From: an uncultured Butyrivibrio sp.
GTDB lineage: Bacteria; Bacillota; Clostridia; Lachnospirales; Lachnospiraceae
Assembly: GCA_964405265.1 (NCBI GenBank)
Contig: CAYONC010000006.1
Location: 38,174 to 102,173, forward strand
DNA: 64,000 bases
Direction of reading: 5' to 3'
This document shows positions 19,762-40,838 of this stretch, piece after piece. The position numbers and the translations under genes are program-made. The stretch's first letter is position 1. Each line of letters opens with the position of its first letter. The notes below the pieces were generated by a model. It saw only the letters and a list, made by a program, of their open reading frames with translations. It was not told the DNA's origin and did not search any database.

Positions 19762-20664
19762 TCATGCAAGCTCAAGCATTCTTTCCAACGGTTTTACTGC
19801 TTTATTTATGATATCTTCAGTCAGAATAACTTCATTGATTTCGTTCTCAAGTACATCATATATCTTTTCAAGTGTTATTTTCTGCATATCACCGCATTTC
19901 TGTTCTCTGATTAAGGTATACAGCTTTTTACCCTCTGCCTGTTTTTTTATCTCTGCAAATACACCGTCAACGGTTCCTATAATAAATTCGTCCGCATCGG
20001 TATTTTTTACGTAATTTATTATTCCCGAGGTACTCCCGGTATAATCCGCATATTTCAGGACATCTGCAAGACACTCCGGATGTGCTGCAAATTTTGCATC
20101 CGGATGTGCTTTTCTGGCTTCAATTACATCATGCTCACTTATAATTGTATGCCTCGGACAGTGCCCGGAGTTAAGAATGATATTTTTTTCGGGAACATTT
20201 TTCTTAACAAAGCTTCCGAGATTGGAATCGGGAATAAAAAATACATTCTTATTGGAAAGCTTCTTAACTATGCTTACGGCATTTGCGGATGTAACACATA
20301 CGTCCGAAGCAGCCTTCAGTTCTGCTGTCGAATTTATGTAGCACACTACCGCAAGGTCTTCATATTTTTCCCGCATGATTTTAATTTCCTCAACAGATGC
20401 CATATGTGCCATTGGACAGTCTGCCGTAACGTCCGGAAGAAAAACCCTTTTCTCCGGATTCAGCATTTTGGCACTTTCTCCCATAAATCCGACTCCGGCA
20501 AATATTATTCTGTCTTCCGTAACCTTATTCGCAATTACACTCAGGTAATATGAATCTCCTACGTAATCCGCAATATTCTGTATTTCTTCATCCACATAGT
20601 AATGTGCCAGAATTACGGCATTTTTTTCTTTTTTCAATCTCAATATATCTTCCGTTAATGACAT
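19762..20664 (-). CDS. nadA: Quinolinate synthase
   Basis: ILAHYY, DYVGDS, FMGESAK, CPMA, CYINS, HPEC, CGDM; ATG 20664 after AAGGAG. Confidence 0.96.
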   Translation of the reverse strand: MSLTEDILRLKKEKNAVILAHYYVDEEIQNIADYVGDSYYLSVIANKVTEDRIIFAGVGFMGESAKMLNPEKRVFLPDVTADCPMAHMASVEEIKIMREKYEDLAVVCYINSTAELKAASDVCVTSANAVSIVKKLSNKNVFFIPDSNLGSFVKKNVPEKNIILNSGHCPRHTIISEHDVIEARKAHPDAKFAAHPECLADVLKYADYTGSTSGIINYVKNTDADEFIIGTVDGVFAEIKKQAEGKKLYTLIREQKCGDMQKITLEKIYDVLENEINEVILTEDIINKAVKPLERMLELA

Positions 20665-20669
20665 AATGG

Positions 20670-21374
20670 TCAGTCTCCTTTTGTTCTCACATGAATCAGT
20701 TCTCTTATTACTTCTCCCGCTGCCATCATTCCGGCACATGACGGTACAAATGCAGTACTTCCCGGTATTCTCCCTATCCTGTCATTTCTGCAGGGTTCTT
20801 CTGTTGAATACACAACCTTGAGACGTTCTATGCCTCTTTTTCTTAATTCCCTGCGCATTACCCTTGCAAGCGGACACACCGACGTATTGTATATGTCTGT
20901 TACATGCAGTTTAGACGGCTGCAGCTTATTGCCTGTTCCCATGCAGCTTATTACTGGTATTCCTTTTTGTGTGCATTTTACTATTATATCCAGTTTTGCC
21001 GTTACCGTGTCTATTGCGTCCACTACATAGTCACAGCCGTCAAAATCAAAGTTTTCCGATACCTCTGGCAGATAAAAGCAGTTTATTACCTCAACACGTG
21101 CTTCCGGATTAATGTCAAGAATCCTTTCTTTCATTACTTCTGTCTTCATTCTTCCGACCGTTGAGCCGGCAGCAATTATCTGTCTGTTAATATTGCTTAC
21201 GGATACCCTGTCATTATCAACAAGAATAAATTTTCCTATCCCGCTCCTGGCAAGTCCTTCCGCGACATATCCTCCTACGCCTCCGATACCGAAAATCATG
21301 ACTCTTGCATCTGAAAGTATCTTCATGGAGTCTGTGCCTACAAGCATTTCCATTCTGTCAAACCGTTTTTCCAT
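20670..21374 (-). CDS. tcdA: tRNA threonylcarbamoyladenosine dehydratase (ThiF family)
   Basis: FGIGGVGG, VDNDRV.VSNINRQ, DAID, CMGTGNK, CPLARVMR, PGSTAFVP. Confidence 0.9.
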   Translation of the reverse strand: MEKRFDRMEMLVGTDSMKILSDARVMIFGIGGVGGYVAEGLARSGIGKFILVDNDRVSVSNINRQIIAAGSTVGRMKTEVMKERILDINPEARVEVINCFYLPEVSENFDFDGCDYVVDAIDTVTAKLDIIVKCTQKGIPVISCMGTGNKLQPSKLHVTDIYNTSVCPLARVMRRELRKRGIERLKVVYSTEEPCRNDRIGRIPGSTAFVPSCAGMMAAGEVIRELIHVRTKGD

Positions 21375-22950: not shown

Positions 22951-23711
22951 ATCGGACTGCAGATCATTACCATATTATTCGTCCTTACCAGCCGGCATAC
23001 AACGCCGCTTGTGCTGTTGAGTGCCTCAACACTCATACCGTTCCCGACATAAATTGCAACATGATCAATGTTCATGAACCTTCCGTTCTGAGAAGAGCTG
23101 TAAAAAATCAAATCTCCCGGCTTCATGTTATCATATGAACGTGCTTTTCCTGCCTCATAAAGCAGCTGAGCCTCTGCGGCTGCCGTATTTATGCCGTTGC
23201 GGCTGATATTTATTCCTGCATTAAGACATGAATAATACGCAAGTGAGCTGCAGTCATAATATGAGCCGGAATCTCTTTTTTCCTGCGAATAAGGATATCC
23301 GACCTTTGAAAGCGCATAGGTGCATATAAGTTTTCTCTCCGTTTCTTCCATATCCTGTATTGCACCGGTTTCAGCCGGAGCTTCCGTCAGGGCTTCAATC
23401 GGGGCTTCTGTCGGGGCTTCTGTCGGGGCTTCTGTCGGGGCTTCAATCGGGGCTTCCGTCGGGGCTTCTGTCGGGGCTTCCGTCGGGGCTTCCGTCGGGA
23501 CTTCCGTCGGGGCTTCAATCGGGGCTTCAATCGGGGCTTCTGTCGGGGCTTCAATCGGGGCTTCCGTCGAAGCCTCCGTTACAGACTCTGCCTGTAACGG
23601 CTTCATAAGCTCCGTACCTGCGTTCCTGTCATGTAAATAATTAATACAATGCAATGTAAAAACCGATAATGCAGCCACAATATTCACGATGGTTCTTGTA
23701 TATTTTCTCAT
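22947..23711 (-). CDS. NlpC/P60 (C40) peptidase with PTEA repeat stalk
   Basis: Signal/anchor; GYPYSQ, YDCSSL (Cys), PGDLIFY, DHVAIYVG (His). Confidence 0.9.
   Translation of the reverse strand: MRKYTRTIVNIVAALSVFTLHCINYLHDRNAGTELMKPLQAESVTEASTEAPIEAPTEAPIEAPIEAPTEVPTEAPTEAPTEAPTEAPIEAPTEAPTEAPTEAPIEALTEAPAETGAIQDMEETERKLICTYALSKVGYPYSQEKRDSGSYYDCSSLAYYSCLNAGINISRNGINTAAAEAQLLYEAGKARSYDNMKPGDLIFYSSSQNGRFMNIDHVAIYVGNGMSVEALNSTSGVVCRLVRTNNMVMICSPI
23378..23580. repeat. In-frame 12-bp tandem repeat, about 16-17 copies (PTEA/PIEA)
   Basis: tcggggcttc(tg/cg/aa) repeated head to tail. Confidence 0.95.
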
Positions 23712-24460
23712 ACTTCCGGCTGTTTTCCTTTTTTCTCCGGTATATACGGGAAGGTCGGCATAAGCTCAAGTTTAAACCTGTTCATTCTGTTCATCCTGTC
23801 TATTTTTTCCTTTACTTCGTCATCATCACATACTCCGGTTCTGATATATCTGTCAAGCACATCATAGGTAAAGCCGATTTTTTCCTCATCCGATTTACCG
23901 CTTAACCCGTCACTCGGTGTCTTATATATGAGATTATGCGGAAGTCCGAGTGCCTCACCAATCTGCCTTGCTTCTGTCACCGTAATATTGGCAAGCGGCG
24001 AAAAATCACCTGCACTGTCCCCATACCGTGTTGAATATCCTATCCAGTCTTCTGAAAGATTACAGGTATTCGCCACCCTTCCGTTATTGCTCTGACTTAC
24101 TGCATACAGGACTGACATTCTTATTCTTGGCGGAAGGTTTATGCGCGTCTGTTCTGAAATTTCTATTCCTGCACAATTCATTTCACTGATAACCCCTTCA
24201 ACGGATGACTTTATATTAATTACATAATGTCTGATTTCAAGATGATTCACTAATTGCAGGGCATCATCAATGTCCGCCTGTTCTCCGTCCGGCATAAGCA
24301 CTCCTATTACCCTGTCCCTGCCCAGTGCTTCCGTACACAGTGCAGCAACAATGGACGAATCCTTACCTCCTGATATGCCTATTACGGCATTGCATCCCTT
24401 TCCGTTTTTCTCAAACCATTCCCTTATCCACCCGATTATTCTGTCTTTTAAACTTTCCAT
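23708..24460 (-). CDS. nadE: NH3-dependent NAD+ synthetase (single domain, no glutaminase domain)
   Basis: IGISGGKDSS, NLPPRIRM, TCNLSE..IGYSTRYGD, KTPSDGL, DEEKIG; about 250 aa. Confidence 0.93.
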   Translation of the reverse strand: MESLKDRIIGWIREWFEKNGKGCNAVIGISGGKDSSIVAALCTEALGRDRVIGVLMPDGEQADIDDALQLVNHLEIRHYVINIKSSVEGVISEMNCAGIEISEQTRINLPPRIRMSVLYAVSQSNNGRVANTCNLSEDWIGYSTRYGDSAGDFSPLANITVTEARQIGEALGLPHNLIYKTPSDGLSGKSDEEKIGFTYDVLDRYIRTGVCDDDEVKEKIDRMNRMNRFKLELMPTFPYIPEKKGKQPEV

Positions 24461-24480
24461 TTTCAAAGCCTCCGCATATG

Positions 24481-25776
24481 TCAGTTATATGTTATGTCAT
24501 ATGATATACTGCCGTTTCCGTATTTGCATGAATAACTCACGCCCTTTCCGGCTATGAAGGTATCAACCTTTTCCATTATGGCATCAACACTTACCGAATC
24601 ATTATTCAGCAAAAATATGTATCTGCCTGAATCAGTCATTAATGCTATGGCAGAATCTGCTTCCGTTTCCGAATTTATCGTGAATATTCCGCTGTATCCC
24701 ATTATGGTATACGGATATTCATTATATTCTGACGAGGTTCCGTATTGCGACGGTGTATTGCCTGCATATTTATCTGCCGTGTGTGTCATGGATATTTTGT
24801 CATATGTACACAGAAAATATGTATATGATATATTGGAACCGTCCTTATAATCGCTTGTTCCTTTTATCATCGGATCATCCCATGTAACATCCATAAAATA
24901 CCATTCACCGTTAATCATTACGCCGTTCCATGCATGAGGCTCACCTGCATCTCCTGATACAAGTGAACATGGTATGTCCAGTTCATTCATAAATACATAA
25001 AATGCAACCGAATAGCCCTGACACACGGCAATTCTGTTATTAAGTATATTATACAGATGGTTCCGTGCATCACTTCTGGAATAATATGACGTGTCATATT
25101 TTGTATTAACGACAAGGTAATCATGAACCGCCTTAATTTTCTCAAGATCCGACATGTCGGTATATATTATTCCGCTTATTATGTTGCGGACTCTTACAAT
25201 ATCATCCGTGGTTATATTACTGTAACTGCTTATTTCAGGATATGTGGTTATTTCACCTGAAACAATGAGCGGTATGTGTGCTGACGGTGCTGAGGTCACA
25301 GGCTCCGTTGGTGCTGCCGTCTCTGATTCTGCCGGCGACGATGTTGCAGGTTCCGCGGGCTTAACAGCCGGTGATGATGTTGCAGGTTCCGCAGGCTTAA
25401 CAGCTGGCGACGATGTTGCAGGCTCCACAGGCTTAACCGTTGAAGGCTCAGTCGGTTTAACTGATGGTACACGTGTTGCAGGTTCCGTAACTGTCTCTTC
25501 TGGTCTTACTGTCTGTGTCTCCTCCGGAAATCCGGTTTCATTTTCCGTTGGTATCTCCGTTCCGTTCTCTCCGGCTGTATCGTTATTTTCAGAAAATGAT
25601 GAGGTATTCTCCGTTTCTCTGTCAGACTCCGCAATATTATCATGTTCATCACTTACCGAAGTAACCCTGTCATTAATATTTACGCTGTCCGGACGTTTCT
25701 TCGTGCATCCTGCCGTCAATACCGTTAAAATTATAACCGCCATTAACAGCATGTTTTTTCTAAACATTTTTTTCAT
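24481..25776 (-). CDS. Lipoprotein with transglutaminase-like (Cys-His-Asp) domain and Pro/Thr linker
   Basis: Lipobox LTAGC; AVHDYL, VCQGYS, HAWN, MDVTWDD. Confidence 0.85.
   Translation of the reverse strand: MKKMFRKNMLLMAVIILTVLTAGCTKKRPDSVNINDRVTSVSDEHDNIAESDRETENTSSFSENNDTAGENGTEIPTENETGFPEETQTVRPEETVTEPATRVPSVKPTEPSTVKPVEPATSSPAVKPAEPATSSPAVKPAEPATSSPAESETAAPTEPVTSAPSAHIPLIVSGEITTYPEISSYSNITTDDIVRVRNIISGIIYTDMSDLEKIKAVHDYLVVNTKYDTSYYSRSDARNHLYNILNNRIAVCQGYSVAFYVFMNELDIPCSLVSGDAGEPHAWNGVMINGEWYFMDVTWDDPMIKGTSDYKDGSNISYTYFLCTYDKISMTHTADKYAGNTPSQYGTSSEYNEYPYTIMGYSGIFTINSETEADSAIALMTDSGRYIFLLNNDSVSVDAIMEKVDTFIAGKGVSYSCKYGNGSISYDITYN
25331..25461. repeat. In-frame 36-bp repeat, about 3-3.5 copies (SSPAVKPAEPAT)
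   Basis: gatgttgcagg(t/c)tcc...ggcttaac repeated. Confidence 0.8.
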
Positions 25777-25837
25777 ATGAATCGCACTCCTCAGACTTTA
25801 ATTAACATGATTATACCATATAACATTCTTCTGTAAA

Positions 25838-25878
25838 AGAAAAAAGGATGCAGAATCACAATTCCGCATCCTTCTTTT
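25838..25878 (-). terminator. Intrinsic terminator after gatB
   Basis: aaggatgc...gcatcctt hairpin with T tracts available on both strands. Confidence 0.8.
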
Positions 25879-25885
25879 ATTCTGT

Positions 25886-27310
25886 TTATAAGCTGTTAAG
25901 CCTGTTTTCCAGTGTTTCTTTTAAAACAGCCGGATCAACAATTCCCTTGAGTTCCTTCATACACGCACCGAAAATTGACTGGAATGCTTTAACCTTTCCG
26001 TTTTTGTAATCAGTTACCGCCTGTACGTTGGCTTTAATCACTTCGTCAATTACCGTTTCCATCCTTGAAGAATCCACTTTTTTATCAAATCCGTTTTCTT
26101 TACAATATTCAACAGGATTCACATCTTCTTCAAAGACTGCAGCGAGAACCTTTTTACCTGAAATTCTGTTAATCGTTCCTGATTCAACCATTTTTATGAT
26201 TGATATCATTTTTTCAGAAGAAATATCAAGCATATCTATTGTTTTACCTTCTTTTCTCAGAAGACCCACACATTCCGTAAGTATCCAGCCGGATGCTTCC
26301 TTTGCCGTACAGCCTGCTGCAGTCACCTCGTCAAACAGTTCCGCTATATTCTTGTTGCCGATTATCATACTGATTTCTTTATCGGAAAGTCCTGCTTCCT
26401 GATATTCCACTGTTTTATCATCAATTTCTACCGGTCTGTTGCGCTTAATCTGCTCAATCCATTCATCATCAATAACTATCGGCATAAGGTTAGGATCCGG
26501 AAAATATCTGTAATCAGCTTCCGTTTCCTTGTTACGCATTGCAAATGTCTTTCCGCTTGCAACATCAAACCTTCTCGTCTCCTGTACAAGTTCTTCCGTT
26601 TCATACTCTATTGCATCTATATGCCTCTGTGCTTCATAATTGATTGCTTTCTCAATCGCCTCAAAAGAACTCATGTTCTTTATTTCTGAACGTACACCAA
26701 GCTCTTCACTTCCTTCAGGGCGTACGGAAATGTTGACATCGCATCTCATTGCGCCCTCTTCACACTCTGAGATACCTCCGAATCTCATCATTGACTTGAG
26801 CTTTGTAAGGTATGAAATAACCTCTTCCGCACTTCTGAAATCAGGCTGGGTCACAATTTCAATGAGAGGAACACTGGTACGGTTAAAATCCACATATGAA
26901 AAGCTTCCGCTGTGAACAAGCTTTCCTGCATCCTCTTCCATGTGAATCTGTTTAATTCTTATTTCACGTACGCCTGCGGACGATTTTACCTTCACAAGAC
27001 CGTTTCTGCATATAGGATGATTAAGCTGCGTTATCTGATATGCACAAGGCAGATCCGGATAATAGTAATTCTTCTTGTCAAAGGTTGTATACCTGCTGAT
27101 TTCGCAGTTAAGCATAAGTCCTGCCGCAACCGCAAGCTCCACTACATGCTTATTCATTACGGGAAGCATTCCCGGCATACCGGAACACGCCGGACATACA
27201 CAGTCATTCGGCTCTTTGGCTGATGAATGTCCTCCGCAGGAGCAGAAAATTTTTGATTCCGTATTTAATTCAACATGGGTTTCAAGACCTATTACAAGTT
27301 CGTACTTCAT
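25886..27310 (-). CDS. gatB: Asp/Glu-tRNA amidotransferase subunit B
   Basis: IGLETHVEL, FCSC/CPAC, KNYYYPDLP, HMEEDAGK, DFNR..VPLIEIV, RCDVN, YRYFPDP. Confidence 0.96.
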   Translation of the reverse strand: MKYELVIGLETHVELNTESKIFCSCGGHSSAKEPNDCVCPACSGMPGMLPVMNKHVVELAVAAGLMLNCEISRYTTFDKKNYYYPDLPCAYQITQLNHPICRNGLVKVKSSAGVREIRIKQIHMEEDAGKLVHSGSFSYVDFNRTSVPLIEIVTQPDFRSAEEVISYLTKLKSMMRFGGISECEEGAMRCDVNISVRPEGSEELGVRSEIKNMSSFEAIEKAINYEAQRHIDAIEYETEELVQETRRFDVASGKTFAMRNKETEADYRYFPDPNLMPIVIDDEWIEQIKRNRPVEIDDKTVEYQEAGLSDKEISMIIGNKNIAELFDEVTAAGCTAKEASGWILTECVGLLRKEGKTIDMLDISSEKMISIIKMVESGTINRISGKKVLAAVFEEDVNPVEYCKENGFDKKVDSSRMETVIDEVIKANVQAVTDYKNGKVKAFQSIFGACMKELKGIVDPAVLKETLENRLNSL

Positions 27311-28501
27311 CTATTTTCCCTCCTTTTCAACAGCACCTGCAATGCTGAGCAGTGTATTTTCATTAAATGCCTTTCCCATAAGCTGCACACCGGATGTTAC
27401 AAGCGAAGGAATACCCGTAAGATTTGCTGCCGAAGTAAAAATACTTTCCGCATATACCTTCTCAAAAGCTCCGGAAATATCATAGCTTTCATATTTTAAG
27501 GTGCTGCACGCCGGTATCAGCACCGCATCATATTTTTCAAAAATATCCTTAAGCCTGTCACTTATTACACGCCTGATTCTCAATGACTTGTCATAGCAGT
27601 CAGCGTAACGCTGCTTTGAAAGCACGTCAGAGCCATACAGAATAACAGCCTTGGTAAGGAAGTTAAAACCTTCCGTCCTTGAATTAACATACAGCTCATC
27701 AATATTTCTGTATTTTTCCGCACGATATCCGAATTTAACACCGTCATATCGTGACACATTGTTGCAGGTCTCTGCCGACATCAGAATCTGCCATGCAACG
27801 TTTGCCGTTCTGAATATGTCCGCAGATATTTCTTCCGTTATTATTCCGTTTTCTTCGGACTTCCGTACAAAGCTTTTAATTTTTTCCCTTACGATGTTAT
27901 CCGCCATATCGGCAAGTTCACTGATAACGGCGATTTTTTTGCCCTTAACCTCTTCACCGGCAGAGTATGAATATTTTTCTTCTTTAAGGCTTGTTCCGTC
28001 CTTATCGTCATGTCCTGCAATAATACCCATTATCTCTGCAGTCTTTCGTGCATCGGACGCATATACGCCAACCTGTTCTCCTGATGCCGCCGTGGAAATT
28101 ATTCCGTATCTTGAAACGGTTCCATAGGTGGGTTTTAAAAAGTCAACTCCCGAAACTGCTGCCGCTCTCCTCGGTGCACCATTTACGTCAACCCCGAGTG
28201 CCGCCTCTGCGCCGCCGTCGGCAACAAGCTGTGCCGCCGCACCTTTAATTTCTCCCTCAGCCCTGTTAAAATGTGAAAACTCTCCCATTAAATCAAGCCC
28301 GAATTCTCCGGTATGTGTTTTGCCCGAAACGGAATATCCCGCATTTTCGAGACGTACCACTGCTTCCGCACTGAATAACGGCTTAAATCCCGTTAATATT
28401 TTTGAACCGTATGACGCCATACAGTCCCTGACAAGTATACTGTCATCAACCGCAATATTGCCGTTTTTATTTATTGAAGCATAATAATAATTCATTGACA
28501 A
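27311..28501 (-). CDS. gatA: GatA homologue, N-terminally short, catalytic triad absent
   Basis: LKPTYGTVSRYG, NVSRYDGVKFGYR, SRTEGF, ANLTGIP conserved; IAVDD replaces IxxKD and GVDVNGAPR replaces GSDTGGSIR; stop abuts gatB ATG. Confidence 0.88.
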   Translation of the reverse strand: MSMNYYYASINKNGNIAVDDSILVRDCMASYGSKILTGFKPLFSAEAVVRLENAGYSVSGKTHTGEFGLDLMGEFSHFNRAEGEIKGAAAQLVADGGAEAALGVDVNGAPRRAAAVSGVDFLKPTYGTVSRYGIISTAASGEQVGVYASDARKTAEIMGIIAGHDDKDGTSLKEEKYSYSAGEEVKGKKIAVISELADMADNIVREKIKSFVRKSEENGIITEEISADIFRTANVAWQILMSAETCNNVSRYDGVKFGYRAEKYRNIDELYVNSRTEGFNFLTKAVILYGSDVLSKQRYADCYDKSLRIRRVISDRLKDIFEKYDAVLIPACSTLKYESYDISGAFEKVYAESIFTSAANLTGIPSLVTSGVQLMGKAFNENTLLSIAGAVEKEGK

Positions 28502-28509
28502 TGTCCTCC

Positions 28510-30591
28510 TTATTTAACAAGTCTTGGTACCTGCCAGCTGTTTTCGTTGTGTGCAGGTGCTCCTTCAAGAAGTTCATCCCTGGTAAAAGGCTGAACCCTT
28601 ACATCTTCACGAAGAACATTATTCATCGGTGAAACATAAATCATTTCTTCGACGTTTTCCGTATCCGTCGTCTTCAGTATTTCTTCCTGTTCCTTCATCA
28701 TGCTGAAAATATCTTTTACCCTGTTTTCTTCTTCTTCGGTAAGTGCCAGCTGGTTAAGCTGCTGAGCATTTGAAAATGTTGAACGCTTTCCCTGTGCTCC
28801 CCTGTATGATGTCTGAGGTCCCATGCCTGCCCTTCTCTCAAGTGCATTTCCGTTTCCCAGAAGGTGAACATCCTCCAACTGTTCATTGGTTACTTCACCC
28901 GGTGCCCCGAGCAGCAGGTCCTGTGCGTTTCCGTTTAACGGGAATGCTATGACGTCAAGAATCTTTTCCTCATCAGTAAGAAGCATAACCATTCTGTCAA
29001 CGCCCGGTGCCATACCTGCATGAGGCGGTGCGCCATACTGGAAAGCTGTATAAAGCGCATTGAACCTTTTCTTAAGTTCCTCCTCGGAATATCCTGCAAT
29101 TTCAAATGCTTTCTTCATAATGTCAATGTCATGGTTTCGTACCGCACCTGATGCAAGCTCTATTCCGTTGCACACAAGGTCATACTGATATGCAAGTACA
29201 TCCTCAGGATTTTTTGTAAGCAGTGCTTCCATGCCTCCCTGCGGCATTGAAAACGGATTATGCGTAAAAATGGTTGCTCCTGTTTCCTCATCTTCTTCGT
29301 ACATAGGGAAGTCAACAACAAAACAGAATTCAAATGAATCATCCTTAATAAGGTCAAGATTTTCCTTCCTTGCAAGCCATGTTCTTATAAGACCGGCTTT
29401 CTTTTCCGTATCATTTTTCTTCTCATCACAAATGAAAAAGAGTGTCTCATTCTCTTTAATTCCCGTTATTTCAGTAATTTCCGATTTCTGTGCATCACTG
29501 AGGAATTTTGCGATTGGTCCTGCAAAATTTCCGTCCTTCAGTGTAATATATCCGAGTCCTCCGAGTGCAACCTCATCTGACATTGCATACTTTAAGGAAT
29601 CCTCAAAAAATTTCTTGGATTTATTCCTGCAGTCGGCAACAATTCCCCTTACCGGTTTGCCCTTAAATGCCGGGAATGACACTCCTGAGAAGAAATCCGT
29701 CAGATCACGGATTATAAGAGGATTTCTTAAATCCGGCTTATCAGAACCGTATGTCATCATTGCATCCGCATAGGTAATTCTTCTGAAAGGCTTAGGACTT
29801 ACCTTTTTATCGGAAAATTTCACGAATGTATCATATATGACATCTTCACATACCTCAAGAACCTCTTCCTGCGTGGCAAATGCCATTTCAAAATCAAGCT
29901 GGTAAAATTCTCCCGGTGACCTGTCTGCTCTCGCATCCTCATCACGGAAACACGGTGCTATCTGGAAGTATCTGTCAAATCCTGATACCATAAGAAGCTG
30001 TTTAAACTGCTGTGGTGCCTGAGGCAGTGCATAGAATTTTCCGGGATGCTTACGGCTCGGTACAAGAAAATCCCTCGCTCCTTCCGGTGATGATGCCGTA
30101 AGTATCGGTGTCTGCATTTCCAAAAAATCCTTTTCTTCCATTTTATGTCTGAGGAATCGGATTATCTGCGAACGCTTTACGAGATTGTCATGATTTTTCG
30201 GATTACGGAGGTCAAGATAACGGTATTTTAATCTCAGCTCATCCTTAATCTGTCTTGAGCCTGCCACGTCAAACGGTGTCATGTTTTTTGCTTTTCCGAG
30301 TACGGTAAGCTCACTTACCACGAGCTCCACGTAACCTGTATCTATTTTATTATTGACCGTTTCAGGGTCTCTCTTTTCCACTGTTCCCTTTACTGAAATT
30401 ACCGTTTCACGGTTAACATCCTTCAGTAAGTCTTCATTGTGAATTACCGTCTGTGTAATTCCCGTATAATCTCTGATATCCACGAATATGACTCCGCCAT
30501 GGTCACGGATTACGTCAACCCAGCCTGCCAGCTCAACTGTCTGACCGACATGTTCTTCACGGATGTCATTGCAGTGATGTGTTCTGTACAT
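28510..30591 (-). CDS. aspS: Bacterial-type aspartyl-tRNA synthetase (non-discriminating signature) fused to a C-terminal GatC domain
   Basis: MYRTHHC, RDHGG, EGARDFLVPSR, LPQAPQQFKQLLM, CFRDED, GAPPHAG; after a roughly 30-aa Gly-rich linker comes LALTEEE...DTENVE...NVLRED...LLEGAP...WQVPRLV (GatC; about 28510-28767). Confidence 0.93.
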   Translation of the reverse strand: MYRTHHCNDIREEHVGQTVELAGWVDVIRDHGGVIFVDIRDYTGITQTVIHNEDLLKDVNRETVISVKGTVEKRDPETVNNKIDTGYVELVVSELTVLGKAKNMTPFDVAGSRQIKDELRLKYRYLDLRNPKNHDNLVKRSQIIRFLRHKMEEKDFLEMQTPILTASSPEGARDFLVPSRKHPGKFYALPQAPQQFKQLLMVSGFDRYFQIAPCFRDEDARADRSPGEFYQLDFEMAFATQEEVLEVCEDVIYDTFVKFSDKKVSPKPFRRITYADAMMTYGSDKPDLRNPLIIRDLTDFFSGVSFPAFKGKPVRGIVADCRNKSKKFFEDSLKYAMSDEVALGGLGYITLKDGNFAGPIAKFLSDAQKSEITEITGIKENETLFFICDEKKNDTEKKAGLIRTWLARKENLDLIKDDSFEFCFVVDFPMYEEDEETGATIFTHNPFSMPQGGMEALLTKNPEDVLAYQYDLVCNGIELASGAVRNHDIDIMKKAFEIAGYSEEELKKRFNALYTAFQYGAPPHAGMAPGVDRMVMLLTDEEKILDVIAFPLNGNAQDLLLGAPGEVTNEQLEDVHLLGNGNALERRAGMGPQTSYRGAQGKRSTFSNAQQLNQLALTEEEENRVKDIFSMMKEQEEILKTTDTENVEEMIYVSPMNNVLREDVRVQPFTRDELLEGAPAHNENSWQVPRLVK

Positions 30592-30685
30592 CTTCTTCTA
30601 CCTCCTGAATAAAAAATGTATAAAGTACGGCTCTTACCGGATGGTGGTAAATCTTATGTCCGGCAAAATATACATCCGTCAGACA

Positions 30686-30895
30686 AAAAAACGGGAATAC
30701 ATAAAATTATGTATTCCCGGGACGAGCAAACAATGTTAACCCGCGGTGCCACCCGCATTGAAGCCTATGCTTCCACTTTAACTTAAATTGTAAATTATAC
30801 AACAGAGTGTTCCCACGCTTACTACTCTTCTCAAACATGCTTCCAGCCGATGACATGTTCTCTCTGTCAGAATTTCCACAAAAGCGGAGTCTCCA
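30686..30895 (-). ncRNA. T-box riboswitch leader of aspS-gatC/gatA/gatB
   Basis: AGAGAG bulge and GGCTGGAAG loop motifs, T-box GGGTGGCACCGCGG (30741-30754), 3' CTCGTCCC antiterminator strand, terminator gggaatacat-loop-atgtattccc-T7; candidate specifier AAC at 30809-30811. Confidence 0.9.
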
Positions 30896-30901
30896 CTGGA
30901 A

Positions 30902-30930
30902 ATAGTATCAGATTATTTTTCTAAAATCAA
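30902..30930 (-). promoter_or_regulatory. Promoter for the T-box leader
   Basis: TTGATT-17 bp-TACTAT with extended TG on the minus strand. Confidence 0.6.
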
Positions 30931-30984: not shown

Positions 30985-31004
30985 TATGACTAAATGAATA
31001 TAAC

Positions 31005-31118
31005 CGCAGTCCGGTATGCATACGTATGCATGAGAGGGAAGTTCGGTGTAAATCCGTCGCAACCATCATTACCGTAATTGAAGATTTTCTTCATAAGTCG
31101 GGCTACTCTCCGGACAAC
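31005..31118 (+). ncRNA. Cobalamin riboswitch (compact, class-II-like)
   Basis: P1 gtccgg/ccggac; core AGGGAAGTTCGGTGTAAATCCG, ACCGTAA, AAGTCGG; precedes B12-type ECF genes. Confidence 0.85.
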
Positions 31119-31215
31119 GGCGGAGGTTTTGTGCCACAGGCACTAACGCTTTTGGATATGAAAGGCGGAACCGTTAAAAGGGGATATCATACCCTTTTTG
31201 CTTAACGGGATTTTT

Positions 31216-31505: not shown

Positions 31506-32318
31506 ATGAAAAAATTATTAACAGCGCTTTTAACTCTTGCACTCACCGCGTACACCGTCATAATTCCGGTATCTGCTGCCGATACGGATGCAGACGGTAC
31601 CATCGTGTATGTAACGATTACCGATTCTGATGGAAAAACGGTTCTTGCCAATGAAGCCGTTACGGTTAATGACTGCGATAATGATGGAACCCTTACGATT
31701 AACGACGCCCTTTATTCGGCGCATGAAGCAAACTACGAAGGCGGTGCGGCTGCAGGCTATGCATCCGCAGACAGTGAGTGGGGATTATCCCTCACAAAAT
31801 TATGGGGCTGCGAAAACGGAGGTTCATACGGCTATTATGTTAATAATGCATCAGCCATGAGCCTGTCCGATGAAGTTAAAAATAACGATCACGTCAATGC
31901 TTTTGTATATACTGACCTTGTATCATACAGTGATACATATACTTTTTTCAGTGCAGATACGTCTGATGTTGATGCAGGAAGTGAATTTACCCTTACACTT
32001 ACGGCTTACGGATGGGACGGAAATTCTCCTGTGGAAAATGCCATAATTCTTGTCAACGGTCAAAAAACGGATTATCACACCGGTGCTGACGGTACCGTTG
32101 CAATGAAGCTTAACGGGGCAGGACGATATATAATCAGTGCCGAATGTGACGAAATCAACATTGTGGCTCCGGTATTTACGATAAATGTATCAGGAAGTAC
32201 ACAGTCGGAACCTGCTGCCGGTGATAACGGCATGGTTTATGTATGGATGGTGCTTCTTATCATATGTACATGCACTGCATATATTACAGTGAAACATACA
32301 AAATGCCATGAATCATAA
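31506..32318 (+). CDS. Surface protein with DUF4430-like domain, Ig-like domain and C-terminal anchor
   Basis: Signal peptide; TINDAL...LTKLWG..GGSYGYYVNN; C-terminal PAAGD + TM + basic tail. Confidence 0.65.
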   Translation: MKKLLTALLTLALTAYTVIIPVSAADTDADGTIVYVTITDSDGKTVLANEAVTVNDCDNDGTLTINDALYSAHEANYEGGAAAGYASADSEWGLSLTKLWGCENGGSYGYYVNNASAMSLSDEVKNNDHVNAFVYTDLVSYSDTYTFFSADTSDVDAGSEFTLTLTAYGWDGNSPVENAIILVNGQKTDYHTGADGTVAMKLNGAGRYIISAECDEINIVAPVFTINVSGSTQSEPAAGDNGMVYVWMVLLIICTCTAYITVKHTKCHES

Positions 32319-33834
32319 GCATATCTTCAGAACATTTTCATTTTTATTAATCTTTCTGTCTGTCTTCTTCTTTTCCCGTCCGGTTTATGCGGGATTACCG
32401 GAAGACAGTATGGAAATTTACGAAAACATTCTGAAATACAAGGGTGCCGGTTCGGAGGATGAAATTCAGCAGCTGATTGACAGCGGAAGCCTCTCCGAAT
32501 GGTACATCCTTGCACTTGCCGGCTGTGGCTCATACAGCATGGATTCTTATGCAGCAGGACTGCTGTCATATCTTGACGATAACGGCATAAATTCCGCATC
32601 ATCAGCTCTTAAATATGGTCTGTGCCTTATCGCATCAGGATACGGTAACGAAGAATATCTGACCGGCATTCTTGAAAATAATGCCGGAAAACAGGGAATA
32701 ATGAGTCTTGTATTCGGACTTCATCTTGTAAATAACGGAGTAAAGGGAAAAAGCATAGACCGTGACGGACTTATAAATGAAATACTCATGCTTCAGTGTC
32801 AAGACGGCGGCTTTTCCATAATGTCAGACAAGGGAGATGCGGATGTTACCGCAATGGTTCTTCAGGCACTTGCACCAAACCGGTATGCATATCCGGATGT
32901 CAGCACCGCAATTGAGAATGCATTATGCTTTTTGTCGGAATCACAGCTTGAAGACGGCGGCTTTTCGAGCTACGGAACTCCGAATGCGGAAAGTACGGCA
33001 CAGGTCATAATTGCACTGACCTCCCTTGGGATTGATTTATCATCATCCCATGATTTCATAAAGAACGGCAATACACTATTGGACGGTATAAGCAGATATA
33101 TTCTCCCTGACGGAAGCATATGCCATACGGCAGACGGAGTTTCATCTGAAAGTGCCACATCACAGACTTTCTGTGCCATGGCTGCCATAAGACGCATGAA
33201 TGATGACGGAAGTCCCCTGTACATATATGAAAAGGGCGAATACACGTTTACTCCAGAAAAAACACTGAATTACAGGTATATTGCCATTCCCGTAATTGCA
33301 GCTGTCGGGATAATGATATGCATTGTACTCTTCGTAATTAAAAAAAGGCATCCTTTTAATTTTCTGGCAGTCATAATGCTCAGTGCAGCCGGTATACTGT
33401 TTGTTGCATTGACGGATTTTAAATCACCTGATGATTATTATGACGGAAGCAGGATTACAGTTGATAATCCGACCGGTTCTGTCAGTATGTCCATATTATG
33501 CCATACCGTGCAGGGTAAGGCAGAACACATTCCCGAGAACGGTGTAATTCTCGAAAAATCAGTTTTTGACATAGAAGAAGGCGACACCGTATATACGGTT
33601 CTTAAAAGAGCAGCCGTACAATACGGAATACGGATAGACAATACCGGAAACAGCAGTTATGTATATATATCCGGTATAAATTACCTGTATGAATTTGACT
33701 ACGGAGACCTGTCAGGATGGATTTATACGGTCAACGGCATACAGCCCTCAAAGGGTGCCGGTGAATACACACTGAATGACGGTGACGAAATAGAATGGCA
33801 TTACACCCTGAATTTAGGAAAAGACATTGAATGA
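32308..33834 (+). CDS. Prenyltransferase/squalene-oxidase-repeat barrel plus C-terminal DUF4430 (transcobalamin-like)
   Basis: LQCQDGGF, DADVTAMVLQAL, SQLEDGGFSSYG, NAESTAQVIIAL; two TMs; TVYTVL..., YISGINYLYEFDYGDLSGWIYTVNG. Confidence 0.82.
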   Translation: MNHKHIFRTFSFLLIFLSVFFFSRPVYAGLPEDSMEIYENILKYKGAGSEDEIQQLIDSGSLSEWYILALAGCGSYSMDSYAAGLLSYLDDNGINSASSALKYGLCLIASGYGNEEYLTGILENNAGKQGIMSLVFGLHLVNNGVKGKSIDRDGLINEILMLQCQDGGFSIMSDKGDADVTAMVLQALAPNRYAYPDVSTAIENALCFLSESQLEDGGFSSYGTPNAESTAQVIIALTSLGIDLSSSHDFIKNGNTLLDGISRYILPDGSICHTADGVSSESATSQTFCAMAAIRRMNDDGSPLYIYEKGEYTFTPEKTLNYRYIAIPVIAAVGIMICIVLFVIKKRHPFNFLAVIMLSAAGILFVALTDFKSPDDYYDGSRITVDNPTGSVSMSILCHTVQGKAEHIPENGVILEKSVFDIEEGDTVYTVLKRAAVQYGIRIDNTGNSSYVYISGINYLYEFDYGDLSGWIYTVNGIQPSKGAGEYTLNDGDEIEWHYTLNLGKDIE

Positions 33835-33851
33835 ACCCGCAGGAGAAGCAT

Positions 33852-34730
33852 ATGAGAAACTTTGATGATTTCAATCCGGTAAGCATAACCATATATTTCA
33901 TTTCAATAACGGCTGTTATAATGTTTTCAAAGAATCCTCTGCTTCTTCTTACGGCTTTTCTGGGAATTACCGCATATTCCGCGGTCTCCCGGAAAAAAGC
34001 CATGCTTCATGCCTTCAGACTGTGTATTCCGATGTACCTTATTCTGACGCTCATCAATCCTTTCCTGTATCATAACGGAAAAACCGTTTTATTTGTATTT
34101 AATGATATGCCTTTTACATTAGAGGCGCTCATCTGCGGAGCCGTAAGTTCCGGAATAATTGTTACCGTAATTCTATGGTTCAGACTTTTTTCATTAATAA
34201 TGTCCGCCGACAGGCTTATGTATGTTACCGGTATACTGTCGCCGGGATTATCCCTGGTGATTTCCATGTCCGTACGGTATGTTTCACTTTTTAAAATCCG
34301 TTTAGGATATATCAGGGACACGCAGAAAGCCCTCGGCCTCTACAAAAAAGATAATATTTTCAATAAGATTAAAAGTGACCTGCGAATCTTTTCCATACTT
34401 ATCACATGGTCTCTCGAAAATGGAATAATCACTGCACGCAGCATGAATGCAAGAGGCTACGGAAAAAATAAACGTACCTCTTACCGCAGATTCAGATTTA
34501 CAAAAGCGGATTCTCTGATGACCGCTGCTGCCGTTTTATGCAGCACGGTAACCTTCACATCACTTATATGCGGAAGCCTTAATTATGAATTTTACCCTTC
34601 TCTCTCAGGCTTTAATGCATCACCGTCCGCATACGCCGGCTGCACGGCATACGCTATTCTTTCACTGCTGCCGTTATTTATTGAACTGGAGGAAAAAATA
34701 AGATGGAAATACTTACGGTCAAAAATATGA
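33852..34730 (+). CDS. ecfT: ECF transporter T component
   Basis: Multi-TM; SMSVRYV, WSLENGIITARSMNARGYG; ATG 33852 after AGGAG. Confidence 0.88.
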   Translation: MRNFDDFNPVSITIYFISITAVIMFSKNPLLLLTAFLGITAYSAVSRKKAMLHAFRLCIPMYLILTLINPFLYHNGKTVLFVFNDMPFTLEALICGAVSSGIIVTVILWFRLFSLIMSADRLMYVTGILSPGLSLVISMSVRYVSLFKIRLGYIRDTQKALGLYKKDNIFNKIKSDLRIFSILITWSLENGIITARSMNARGYGKNKRTSYRRFRFTKADSLMTAAAVLCSTVTFTSLICGSLNYEFYPSLSGFNASPSAYAGCTAYAILSLLPLFIELEEKIRWKYLRSKI

Positions 34731-36241
34731 ATTTTAAATATCCCGGATGTGAAAATAACGCCTTGACGGACGTAAGCTTCAGTATAAACGCCGGGGATTT
34801 TACGGTAATATACGGCTCGACCGGAAGCGGCAAATCAACACTTCTGAGTCTGCTTAAGGAAGAATCGGCTCCAAAAGGCGATATAAACGGCGATATATCC
34901 TGTTCCGGCAGAATCGGTTATGTATGCCAGCACCCTGAAGAACAGATTGTTACTGACAGGGTATATTCGGAGCTTGCCTTCAGTCTTGAAAATGCCGGTA
35001 TGTCACAGGCTGAAATGTCAAAAAAAATTGCTGAAACCGCTTCTTATTTCGGAATTGAGGAATGGTTTGAGCGTGAAACATCCACTCTGTCCGGCGGCGA
35101 ACAGCAGCTCCTCAATCTTGCTTCTGCCATGATAACAGAGCCGGACATTCTTATTCTTGATGAGCCTGCTTCCAGCCTTGATCCCATAGCGGCATCAGAT
35201 TTTGCCTATGCACTTCACAGACTGAGTGAAGAGCTTTCCATTACGATAATAGTGGCTGAACACAGATTTGACATGCTTCTCCCCTTTTGCAACAGACTTA
35301 TAAGACTTGAAAACGGAAAAATCATATCAGAAGACAGTCCGCAAAACATTAAACCGGATTCTCTTCTTATCCCTTCCGTTACAAAGCTTTTTTTCAGGCT
35401 TAAGGGCTCCGGAAGCTGCCCCGTCACGGTAAGGGAATGCCGCCGTTTTATCGAAAAGCTGCCTATGAAAATTGAATGCAGGCCTTTTTCAGATGAATAC
35501 ATACACAGCAATACCGGTGTTCTTGAGTTTAAAAATGTTTTTTTCAGATATGACAGAAATTCACGTGACGTATTAAACGGTCTTAATTTTACGCTGTACG
35601 AGAATGAAATTCTCTGCATTTTAGGAGGAAACGGCTCCGGCAAATCCACAGCCCTGAAATGTGCGTCCGGAATACTTAATCCCTATTGCGGTTCAATCCG
35701 CGTATACAACAAAAACATAAAAAAATACGGTCAGAATCTGTATGATGGTATCCTAAGCCTTATGCCCCAGAATATACAGACCGTTTTCCTTAAAAATACC
35801 GTACGTGAGGAATTCAGGGACGCAGGCGTGGATTTAAATAACCTGTTTTATGATTTTTCACGGCTTCTTGACAGACACCCTTATGACCTGTCCGGCGGTG
35901 AACAGCAGCTTACCGCACTTGCCAAGGTAATTGCTTCAAATCCGAAAATTCTTCTTATGGATGAACCGACTGCCGGCCTTGATGAATACAGAAAAAAAGA
36001 CCTTATCTCCATTTTTCACCGTCTGAAAAATAACGGAGTTTCAATACTCATTGTGACACATGATGTTGATTTTGCCGCCTCTGTGGCCGACAGGTGCGCC
36101 ATGTTCTTCAGAGGTGAAATAACAGCCGAGGGTACTCCGCGTGATTTTTTCTCCGGAAACTCTTTTTATACCACCTGCATATCCCGTGCTACCCGCGGAT
36201 ATGCCGACCACGCAGTTACGCTTGAGGATATAATTATATGA
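34703..36241 (+). CDS. ECF transporter tandem ATPase (fused A/A')
   Basis: Two Walker A motifs (GSTGSGKST, GGNGSGKST), two LSGGE and LDEP/MDEP. Confidence 0.93.
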   Translation: MEILTVKNMNFKYPGCENNALTDVSFSINAGDFTVIYGSTGSGKSTLLSLLKEESAPKGDINGDISCSGRIGYVCQHPEEQIVTDRVYSELAFSLENAGMSQAEMSKKIAETASYFGIEEWFERETSTLSGGEQQLLNLASAMITEPDILILDEPASSLDPIAASDFAYALHRLSEELSITIIVAEHRFDMLLPFCNRLIRLENGKIISEDSPQNIKPDSLLIPSVTKLFFRLKGSGSCPVTVRECRRFIEKLPMKIECRPFSDEYIHSNTGVLEFKNVFFRYDRNSRDVLNGLNFTLYENEILCILGGNGSGKSTALKCASGILNPYCGSIRVYNKNIKKYGQNLYDGILSLMPQNIQTVFLKNTVREEFRDAGVDLNNLFYDFSRLLDRHPYDLSGGEQQLTALAKVIASNPKILLMDEPTAGLDEYRKKDLISIFHRLKNNGVSILIVTHDVDFAASVADRCAMFFRGEITAEGTPRDFFSGNSFYTTCISRATRGYADHAVTLEDIII

Positions 36242-36897
36242 AAAATTTTAAAAAAATCATCCCTTATATTCTGTTTCCGGTATTTTTATGTTCGGCAGTA
36301 TACACATACAATGCCGGCAGTTATATGGCAGCTTCACTTATTACCGTTTTTTTTGCCCTGATAATGTTTTTTTCGGTATTTGAAAAAAGGCAGAGCAGCA
36401 CGGGAAGACTTGTTCTCGTTTCCATAATAACCGCACTGTCCGTTGCAGGAAGATTTATTCCGTTTTTCAAGCCGGTTGCGGCCCTTACCATAATTGCCGG
36501 CATATATCTCGGCAGAGAAGCCGGATTTATGACAGGAGCCTTTTCGGCTTTTATCTCTGATTTTTATTTCGGACAGGGTCCCTGGACGCCTTTTCAAATG
36601 CTCGGCTGGGGAATTGCAGGATATTTTGCGGGACTCTTATCCGTACATTTAAAAAGGAGCAGAAGCTTTCTTCTGCTATATGGTATTGTGTCAGGCATTG
36701 TATTTTCTGCCATAATGGACATCTGGACGGTTATATGGTACAACGGAACATTCAGTTTTCCCCTGTATCTTACGGCACTCGGAACTGCATTGCCTCATAC
36801 GGTGCTTTATTCCGTTTCAAATTTCATGTTTCTGTTTCTTCTTGCCCGTCCGTTCGGAGAAAAGCTTGACAGAATCATTTTACTGTACAGGGTATAG
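36238..36897 (+). CDS. cbrT: ECF S component, CbrT-like cobalamin-specific
   Basis: FKPVAALTIIAGIYLG, FYFGQGPWTPFQM.GWG; context under a B12 riboswitch. Confidence 0.75.
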   Translation: MKNFKKIIPYILFPVFLCSAVYTYNAGSYMAASLITVFFALIMFFSVFEKRQSSTGRLVLVSIITALSVAGRFIPFFKPVAALTIIAGIYLGREAGFMTGAFSAFISDFYFGQGPWTPFQMLGWGIAGYFAGLLSVHLKRSRSFLLLYGIVSGIVFSAIMDIWTVIWYNGTFSFPLYLTALGTALPHTVLYSVSNFMFLFLLARPFGEKLDRIILLYRV

Positions 36898-40645: not shown

Positions 40646-40713
40646 ATCAGTGTCCTCCGGAATTTTCAACTGCTACGGGGACACATATACAAATGTTCCG
40701 CTGATTCCATGTC

Positions 40714-40759: not shown

Positions 40760-40838
40760 GAATTGCAACTGGCTGCCATTTTAAAGGCCCTATAGCTTTG
40801 CGTCACAGATTTTCATCTGCTTTGCCAAATATTTAACT
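40760..40838 (-). ncRNA. c-di-GMP-I (GEMM) riboswitch
   Basis: GGCAAA-gcagat-GAAA-atctgt-GACGCAAAGCTATAGGG...ATGGCAGCCAGTTGC matches the GEMM consensus. Confidence 0.93.

Follow-up and report, generated by a model that had tools for sequence, protein, structure and literature searches.

The window analysed here, a stretch of 64,000 nucleotides from an uncultured Butyrivibrio sp. of the Lachnospiraceae (contig CAYONC010000006.1), contains an operon in which an aspartyl-tRNA synthetase (AspRS) is fused to GatC, a subunit of the tRNA-dependent amidotransferase GatCAB, and is followed by a GatA devoid of its catalytic residues and by an intact GatB. Three contiguous minus-strand open reading frames (ORFs) occupy the interval 25886-30930, and a single minus-strand transcription unit spanning 30929-25838 comprises a promoter, a T-box leader, the three genes and a terminator. 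The four features that a first-pass annotation of this DNA had combined into one hypothesis, namely a T-box with an asparagine specifier, an AspRS with His in the motif RDHGG, the AspRS-GatC fusion and a catalytically dead GatA beside an intact GatB, are all found within these limits. The unit is composed as follows, in window positions:

30901..30929, minus strand: promoter-like element (TTGATT, 17 nt, TACTAT), read from the sequence immediately upstream of the leader
30685..30902, minus strand: T-box leader with Stem I, linker hairpin, Stem III and antiterminator/terminator, from Rfam, relatives and covariation
30809..30811, minus strand: specifier codon AAC (Asn), followed by the purine A30808, unpaired between covarying helices
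30741..30759, minus strand: T-box sequence AAUGCGGGUGGCACCGCGG, from the Rfam alignment and sequence reading
30692..30719, minus strand: leader terminator, a 12-bp hairpin followed by UUUUUUU, from a terminator scan
30591..28510, minus strand: aspS-gatC, 693 aa
28861..30591, minus strand: AspRS module, residues 1-577, of bacterial type with a GAD insertion and intact class II motifs (Pfam)
28780..28860, minus strand: linker of ~27 residues, rich in Gly/Ala/Ser, from alignment; sequence and length vary among relatives
28510..28779, minus strand: complete GatC module, residues 605-693 plus stop (Pfam PF02686)
28495..27311, minus strand: gatA-like gene (dead GatA), 394 aa from ATG
27310..25886, minus strand: gatB, 474 aa, with cradle, helical and YqeY tail domains and intact HVEL, HMEEDAGK and PLIEIV motifs
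25838..25877, minus strand: intrinsic terminator at the end of the operon, with a 17-bp hairpin and a U run after it

The ORF list begins the gatA-like gene at 28501, at a TTG two codons earlier (396 aa), but the ATG at 28495, equipped with a GGAGG ribosome-binding site, is the true start, and the resulting length agrees with homologues of 392-395 aa. The start of gatB directly abuts the gatA stop codon. At the operon end, the terminator folds with -23 kcal/mol (z = -6.1). The promoter-like element at 30901..30929, which is not among the sites listed by a consensus promoter scan, is a tentative assignment.

The AspRS-GatC fusion and its partner subunits

The protein encoded between aspS-gatC and gatB has entirely lost the catalytic triad of GatA. 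In the alignment to A. aeolicus GatA (3h0l_A), VKDN is replaced by VDDS, GGSSGGS by EGEIKGA and GGSIR by NGAPR; the catalytic Lys has become Asp (28447-28445), the cis-Ser Ile (28249-28247) and the nucleophilic Ser Ala (28177-28175). Because all three catalytic residues are absent, this protein cannot hydrolyse glutamine. It is also truncated. Against GatA of A. aeolicus, T. maritima and S. aureus, the alignment begins at canonical residue ~65-75, with ~55 N-terminal residues and two loops of ~9 residues missing. Pfam likewise covers only positions 52-445 of the Amidase profile, and the TIGR00132 (GatA) score of 243 bits lies below the cut-off of 481. A moderate AlphaFold2 (AF2) model (pLDDT 72, pTM 0.80) finds its best matches among GatA chains (TM 0.75-0.78), including those of 3kfu and 4wj3.

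This dead GatA is not a pseudogene, as both its purifying selection and its recurrence attest. More than 120 clusters of homologues of 392-395 aa are found at 65-96% identity, and ~30 more at 50% identity have the same truncation and triad loss. No frameshift or stop occurs among 62 distinct dead-GatA genes, and Lys and cis-Ser are absent from 62 of 62 distinct GatA homologues of such operons. Ratios of nonsynonymous to synonymous substitution (dN/dS) are 0.08-0.12 for dead gatA, and 0.02-0.07 for AspRS and GatB (GatB, 0.03-0.06). GatB is fully canonical, with every catalytic and tRNA-binding motif kept; it scores 566 bits against NF004012 (cut-off 338) and aligns over its full length to 3h0l_B and 3al0_B.

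The first gene encodes a single polypeptide in which Pfam recognizes tRNA_anti-codon, tRNA-synt_2, GAD and GatC (residues 617-687) in turn. Its AspRS module exceeds the cut-offs of NF001750 (740.7 bits; cut-off 443) and TIGR00459 (609.5; cut-off 373.85), while the GatC module scores 38.6 bits against PF02686 (cut-off 23) and 45.4 against TIGR00135, slightly below the cut-off of 47.1. In unfused relatives, AspRS terminates in ...QLREVHIKVRD and GatC opens with M...LNQLxLT, and the fused GatC carries the same N-terminal LNQLxLT motif with which these free-standing proteins start. Relative to them, AspRS in the fusion is short of only its last few residues and the stop codon, and the fusion is a simple joining of the neighbouring aspS and gatC genes.

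Independent contigs from NCBI, ENA, JGI and Logan carry the same fusion, in frame and 690-693 aa long. A protein search with the linker and GatC gave only fragments and short GatC calls. Among these are NCBI 'GatC' entries of 101-117 aa from metagenome-assembled genomes of Acutalibacteraceae, Lachnospiraceae and Ruminococcus (P0405, P0419, P0420, P0426, P0433), some of which also span the fusion linker; these represent free GatC extended at the N-terminus or else fusions that annotation has split. That some database entries are 'GatC' fragments of 100-200 aa covering the linker, several so named by NCBI, could be taken to mean that a frameshift in sequencing or assembly produced the fusion and that the short GatA is a pseudogene or mis-called ORF. 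With the fusion in frame on independent contigs, more than 120 clusters of GatA homologues and dN/dS of ~0.1, such an artefact is practically out of the question. Annotation pipelines label the dead GatA 'hypothetical protein' or amidase and in some cases split the fusion, and pathway reconstructions of these organisms are therefore likely wrong.

The AspRS reads GWVDVIRDHGG, with RDHGG at residues 29-33 and the His31 codon at 30501-30499. In alignments to 1efw and 1eqr, the discriminating AspRS of T. thermophilus and E. coli read RRRDLG at this site, and His31 is present in 39 of 40 distinct AspRS of related operons. The equivalent H31 of P. aeruginosa AspRS was reportedly identified as a determinant of non-discrimination by Bernard and colleagues in 2006. 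The enzyme would thus be of non-discriminating type, its charging of tRNA(Asn) with Asp being suggested by context, namely the GatC fusion and the asparagine T-box. One fused AspRS-GatC (L102:2556-4661; loci of relatives are given L numbers) carries Leu in place of His31 (RDLGG), and the 420 nt upstream of it contain no T-box; this may reflect a recombinant or a chimeric contig. Two other relatives have an archaeal-type AspRS of 444 aa immediately upstream of the T-box (L004:2255-3589 and L111:6679-8028), which matches NF003483 'aspartate--tRNA(Asn) ligase' with 431 bits against a cut-off of 353, and two AspRS types therefore lie side by side in those genomes.

The T-box leader and its specifier

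The leader, ~210 nt in length, matches Rfam RF00230 at 30902..30715 with 47.9 bits (E = 2.5e-9 in local search), a score under the Rfam gathering score of 93. Among relatives, compact-type leaders score 39-49 bits and the canonical-type leaders that precede unfused dead-GatA operons 114-124 bits. Its 3' half is canonical and includes the GGGUGGCACCGCG box. The predicted partner of the UGGC bulge (30751-30748) is a tRNA 3' end of sequence GCCA, i.e. one with discriminator G73. In the Rfam alignment, the leader terminator shares sequence with the 3' half of the antiterminator, making the two structures mutually exclusive. Stem I has an AGAGA bulge, the distal loop CAUCGGCUGGAA and a specifier loop displaying AAC followed by A.

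Evidence for the specifier comes from relatives of both leader types. The compact Stem I of the window is shared by 23 unique related leaders, and RNAalifold on a subset of 20 finds compensatory changes in 15 of 21 predicted pairs. In the consensus fold, AAC and the next purine are unpaired, separated from the AG bulge above by 6 bp, an internal loop and 4 bp, which is the canonical specifier position. The compact set was chosen by its GGGAAC motif, and leaders without this motif were therefore read separately. Those of canonical T-box type read GAA-N-AAC-A (L090, L133, L135, L154 and L160), with L090 and L133 over the RF00230 gathering score at 124.5 and 114.5 bits; L144 and L145 read GGC-AAC-A, and L169 and L171 GGGU-AAC-A. 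Across both sets, the specifier position is AAC in 33 of 33 related leaders with a readable Stem I, which bears out the asparagine specifier that had been proposed from the window alone.

No AGUA/GAA S-turn surrounds the AAC loop. The base helix of Stem I is continuous, and AGUAGUAA and GGAAA motifs lie in a mid-stem internal loop instead. The architecture appears to be compact and glyQS-like, without a recognizable S-turn, and the compact AAC T-box represents a well-sampled, covarying variant of Stem I that dispenses with this usual element. From the sequence and structure of the leader, which point to the binding of tRNA(Asn), the operon probably senses asparagine.

Other codon assignments were considered. 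The large internal loop UUUUGUGGAAA / GAGUAGUAA was first taken as the specifier loop, giving GUA (Val); this was rejected, since no more than 4 bp separate that loop from the AG bulge above it, while the AAC loop is at the canonical distance and canonical-type relatives read GAA-N-AAC-A. A reading as ACR (Thr), prompted by A/G variation after AAC, was dropped because the following base is a pyrimidine, the UGGC bulge suits G73 and the downstream genes fit poorly. The AAC specifier also overlaps a possible GAA (Glu) reading one base upstream, by way of GGGAAC in the window. A 'two-codon' T-box in Clostridium acetobutylicum was reportedly described by Saad and colleagues in 2012/2013. The one-base-shifted GAA/AAC reading has been reported for that leader (PMC4052509).

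Distribution in Clostridia and the source of ammonia

A metagenome scan for the fusion junction returned 80 loci, which together with other loci yielded 61 dereplicated clusters of dead-GatA operons; a scan of a genome collection with a dead-GatA alignment was dominated by canonical GatA, with 3 of 80 loci relevant. The relatives come from rumen, gut and fermenter metagenomes, and metagenome-assembled genomes with the operon include GCA_017415145.1, GCA_045603225.1, GCA_045594685.1, GCA_054272375.1, GCA_045658925.1 and RUG12106. Among sequencing runs, none was found to contain the locus. Twenty-five clusters are fused and 36 unfused, the latter mostly in the order aspS, gatC (93 aa), dead gatA and gatB, with a few consisting of gatC, dead gatA and gatB without aspS and without a T-box. 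Triad loss is independent of the fusion. No live GatA is paired with the fusion among the 25 fused clusters, and the only GatA with the K/S/S triad found is that of a separate canonical gatCAB just downstream in L142. The co-occurrence that the first-pass annotation had anticipated thus holds in one direction: the fusion is always accompanied by a dead GatA in these clusters, while dead GatA occurs without the fusion.

In the genome scan, operons of the type T-box-aspS(His)-gatC-gatA-gatB with a canonical-scoring GatA were found in Streptococcus (L014), Lachnospiraceae (L024) and Eubacterium (L043), with an AAC specifier in at least one of them. T-box-controlled aspS-gatCAB operons are a known type, as had been stated, and the combination of an AAC T-box, a His31 AspRS and gatCAB with canonical GatA appears to be an ordinary Firmicutes arrangement. 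These observations speak against the proposal that the four features form one remodelled package. Dead GatA marks a clade of Clostridia far larger than that of the fusion, and one that is apparently undescribed. A plausible order of events starts from an ordinary Asn-T-box aspS-gatCAB operon; GatA chemistry and N-terminus would then have been lost in a large clade of Clostridia, and aspS and gatC would have been joined in one sub-clade, the window included. In four operon clusters, an AlaX-like trans-editing protein (~384 aa, tRNA_SAD and DHHA1) is encoded directly after gatB or after an asparaginase-like gene (L004:9718-10872, L006:8663-9817, L111:14156-15307 and L121:7205-8383).

tRNA-dependent amidotransferases are textbook cases of a glutaminase coupled to a synthetase site via an ammonia tunnel. 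A widespread natural clade has here dropped the glutaminase chemistry yet keeps the GatA body under selection, which raises the question of whether GatB works on free ammonia in vivo or a different hydrolase has stepped in. In the former case, asparagine synthesis in abundant gut and rumen Clostridia would be tied directly to ambient ammonia; in the latter, a new subunit composition would have arisen, convergent with archaeal GatDE.

We tentatively read the operon as an asparagine-starvation module that makes Asn on tRNA(Asn) with free ammonia as the source, although we give this slightly less than an even chance. Uncharged tRNA(Asn) (anticodon GUU, G73) would build up and base-pair with the leader at its AAC specifier and UGGC bulge, stabilizing the antiterminator so that RNA polymerase reads on into the genes. 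The first product would be an AspRS of non-discriminating type, tethered covalently to GatC via the flexible linker of ~27 residues. GatC normally wraps the GatA-GatB interface, and the fusion would therefore hard-wire AspRS to the amidotransferase as a permanent Asn-transamidosome, in which Asp-tRNA(Asn) may be handed straight to GatB. GatA would now serve GatB and GatC solely as a folded scaffold and a partner in the tunnel, and GatB would phosphorylate Asp-tRNA(Asn) and then amidate it with ammonia not of GatA origin. This ammonia is taken to be the cytosolic NH3/NH4+ pool, in an ammonia-rich gut or rumen habitat, and might reach GatB directly or by way of the truncated and remodelled GatA pocket.

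The tight or overlapping gene junctions, the flanking terminators and the single transcription unit are in keeping with this module. Free NH3/NH4+ is a plausible nitrogen source because there is precedent for the use of NH4Cl, because the relatives come from gut and rumen and because the window lacks a partner gene. Amidotransferases are active in vitro when 20 mM NH4Cl replaces glutamine, and destabilization of the GatA site of yeast GatFAB leads to higher NH4Cl-dependent activity (PMC4027206). The window also encodes, two genes downstream of gatB, a 252-aa NAD synthetase with the synthetase domain only and no glutaminase domain (23708-24466, minus strand), and nadA lies at 19762-20739. That this NAD synthetase would be of the ammonia-dependent type lends weak circumstantial support to the use of free ammonia for amidation by the organism.

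Relatives suggest a different donor. Of 33 evaluable dead-GatA operon clusters, 10 have a divergent gene of the asparaginase family (350-365 aa) no more than 340 nt away; no such gene is near any of the 77 canonical gatA loci (Fisher p = 2e-6, with clusters that are not phylogenetically independent). Examples are L004:8658-9713, L007:8454-9527, L091:3402-4493 and L100:6927-8009, with further loci in L107, L111, L131, L136, L140 and L173-L175. The gene may follow gatB at 25-62 nt on the same strand, overlap the start of gatC (L091), precede the T-box (L100) or be convergent (L131, L173/174), and this variable position indicates that the linkage has outlasted rearrangements. Of three homologues picked by starting from the asparaginase-like protein, all three adjoin gatB of a fusion operon. 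The nucleophilic Thr (GGTIC) and HGTDT are invariant in the family, as are several Cys and His, and its profile aligns over the full length to GatD 1zq1 (88 bits).

It is therefore possible, and only somewhat less likely than the use of free ammonia, that the same asparagine-starvation transamidosome obtains its ammonia from a dedicated amidohydrolase of the type I asparaginase family that replaces GatA activity in the manner of GatD, with dead GatA as scaffold, docking site or tunnel and the gene outside the window in the present case. The GatD-GatE pair provides a precedent (PMC2330236). Against such a helper, tblastn found no asparaginase-like gene in the 64-kb window, which holds no other amidohydrolase candidate either, and ~70% of the examined operon neighbourhoods lack the gene. 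An invariant Gln occupies the position where asparaginases and GatD carry the catalytic Lys, with no conserved Lys in either alignment register, and the protein may be no conventional hydrolase; it could be either an active hydrolase or a second pseudo-enzyme. Its AF2 model (pLDDT 88) folds as a generic type I asparaginase, and Foldseek ranks ordinary type I asparaginases first without singling out GatD; the N-terminal domain of GatD is absent. An asparaginase induced in asparagine starvation would moreover be counter-productive unless it preferred glutamine.

A broader generalization, that gut and rumen Clostridia possess a third kind of tRNA-dependent amidotransferase, is less likely than not. 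Such a GatCAB-GatDE hybrid, dedicated to asparagine under asparagine starvation, would keep GatB and GatC (the latter sometimes fused to AspRS), use GatA as a pseudo-enzyme scaffold and receive ammonia from a subunit of the divergent asparaginase family, whose active site is non-canonical, with Gln for Lys and invariant Cys and His residues.

Several observations weigh against free ammonia as the source, or against the module as a whole. The asparaginase-like gene beside ~30% of related operons, often apparently co-transcribed with them, would argue for a dedicated ammonia-releasing enzyme, and in the present genome it could lie beyond the 64-kb window. The former GatA active site carries a new conserved motif, D-x-[NS]-G-x-x-R-R, and so looks more like a site retained for a ligand or partner than like an open hole. 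The second determinant of non-discrimination in P. aeruginosa AspRS, which we take to be a Gly at about position 82/83 (Lys in E. coli), is Glu here (DPE, compared with DEK in E. coli), leaving one of the two determinants present. Finally, L142 has a canonical gatC-gatA(K/S/S)-gatB set (L142:13070-16337) that follows its dead-GatA operon at a distance of ~100-500 nt.

This last locus, together with a second gatB upstream of the dead-GatA operon in L140 (L140:3-1223), means that both kinds of amidotransferase can coexist in one genome. In hosts that own both, the system might still be glutamine-dependent, with live GatA from a second canonical gatCAB exchanging into or complementing the complex and the dead copy acting as an assembly or regulatory variant. 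This is improbable. The dead gatA gene invariably sits between gatC and gatB, and its adjacent or overlapping junctions with them point to co-assembly in stoichiometric amounts; purifying selection acts on it throughout a deep clade. Between the two systems, GatB and GatC share only ~40-50% identity, and no second system is found in the flanks of operons such as L089 and L091.

Also very unlikely is a complex that no longer amidates and either binds or phosphorylates Asp-tRNA(Asn) for sequestering, proofreading or regulation, or is a decaying paralogue. One subunit has indeed lost catalysis and evolves 2-3 times faster than its neighbours, and AlaX-like editing genes are sometimes adjacent. 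However, the GatB motifs are all intact with dN/dS of 0.03-0.06, the 62 distinct dead-GatA genes are free of frameshifts and stops, and control by an asparagine-sensing T-box is sensible only if the product eases a shortage of Asn-tRNA. The earlier claim of glutamine-independent synthesis from free ammonia is accordingly not supported as it was stated. Because relatives are linked to an asparaginase-family gene, the amide nitrogen could still derive from glutamine or asparagine through a different hydrolase; free ammonia is plausible.

Beyond the operon terminator, a strong promoter-like site (25837..25810, minus strand; promoter scan) precedes the next gene, which encodes a lipoprotein-like transglutaminase-core protein (24481-25776, minus strand) with a Pro/Thr/Ser/Ala-rich repeat region containing PATSSPAVKPAE three times over. 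Diverging from the T-box promoter, a cobalamin riboswitch (30995-31128, plus strand; 32.3 bits against a gathering score of 31.5) heads an operon (31506-36897, plus strand) for a 270-aa secreted protein, a DUF4430/prenyltransferase-like protein, CbiQ, a double ABC ATPase and an ECF S component, which together probably form an uptake system for corrinoids or cobalt. Further away, a c-di-GMP-I riboswitch (40761-40836, minus strand; 60 bits against a gathering score of 35) lies upstream of an ORF of 506 aa with no Pfam match (39149-40669, minus strand). There is no tRNA gene within the 64-kb window.

Relationship to known systems

In the open-access literature, no description was found of the glutaminase-dead GatA clade, of a fusion of the window type or of the asparaginase linkage. 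The suggestion that the system is undescribed stands in this respect and fails in another, since AspRS-GatC fusions are already represented by the NCBIfam family NF009460 (PRK12820), 'bifunctional aspartyl-tRNA synthetase / Asp/Glu-tRNA amidotransferase subunit C', of which no account was found in the same literature. This family has the same chain of a bacterial-type AspRS and a C-terminal GatC. The window fusion aligns to positions 25-718 of its 723, yet scores 457.6 bits against a curated cut-off of 1379 and is not an equivalog; it probably arose independently, in another lineage.

The closest arrangement is that of the T-box aspS-gatCAB operons of Firmicutes (L014, L024 and L043), which, like the window, have a T-box leader, His in the RD(H)G motif of AspRS and the order aspS-gatC-gatA-gatB. 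In these operons, GatA is ~485-493 aa long and canonical by score, the triads not having been read singly, and GatC is a separate protein of 97-113 aa, whereas in the window GatA lacks the triad and the N-terminus and GatC is fused to AspRS. The leaders also differ, Stem I of the window being compact, without a recognizable S-turn and below the Rfam gathering score. As in the two-codon T-box of C. acetobutylicum, GGGAAC in the window permits a one-base shift between GAA and AAC.

The Asn-transamidosome is described as a single particle of non-discriminating AspRS, GatCAB and tRNA(Asn) in which Asp-tRNA(Asn) is channelled and not released (PMC3367201). Those of Thermus thermophilus (3KFU), Pseudomonas aeruginosa (4WJ3) and Helicobacter pylori are non-covalent and tRNA-dependent, with an active glutaminase. 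The present system differs in that AspRS and GatC are covalently joined and the glutaminase is dead; as a natural 'permanent transamidosome', it could ease structural and kinetic study of substrate channelling.

For amidation without a working GatA, two comparisons are available. Yeast mitochondrial GatFAB with a truncated GatF N-terminal domain has a crippled GatA site and still transamidates with NH4Cl, even better than before (PMC4027206); this mutant is laboratory-made, acts on Glu-tRNA(Gln) and keeps the GatA triad, unlike the window. In archaeal GatDE, a donor of the asparaginase family serves a GatB-type kinase/transamidase and there is no amidase (PMC2330236). An asparaginase-family neighbour at ~30% of dead-GatA operons recalls this arrangement. 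The archaeal enzyme, however, has neither GatA nor GatC and acts on Glu-tRNA(Gln), and its GatD carries an extra N-terminal domain and a Thr-Lys-Asp triad, whereas the bacterial asparaginase-like family is devoid of the extra domain, has Gln at the Lys position and is not represented in the window.

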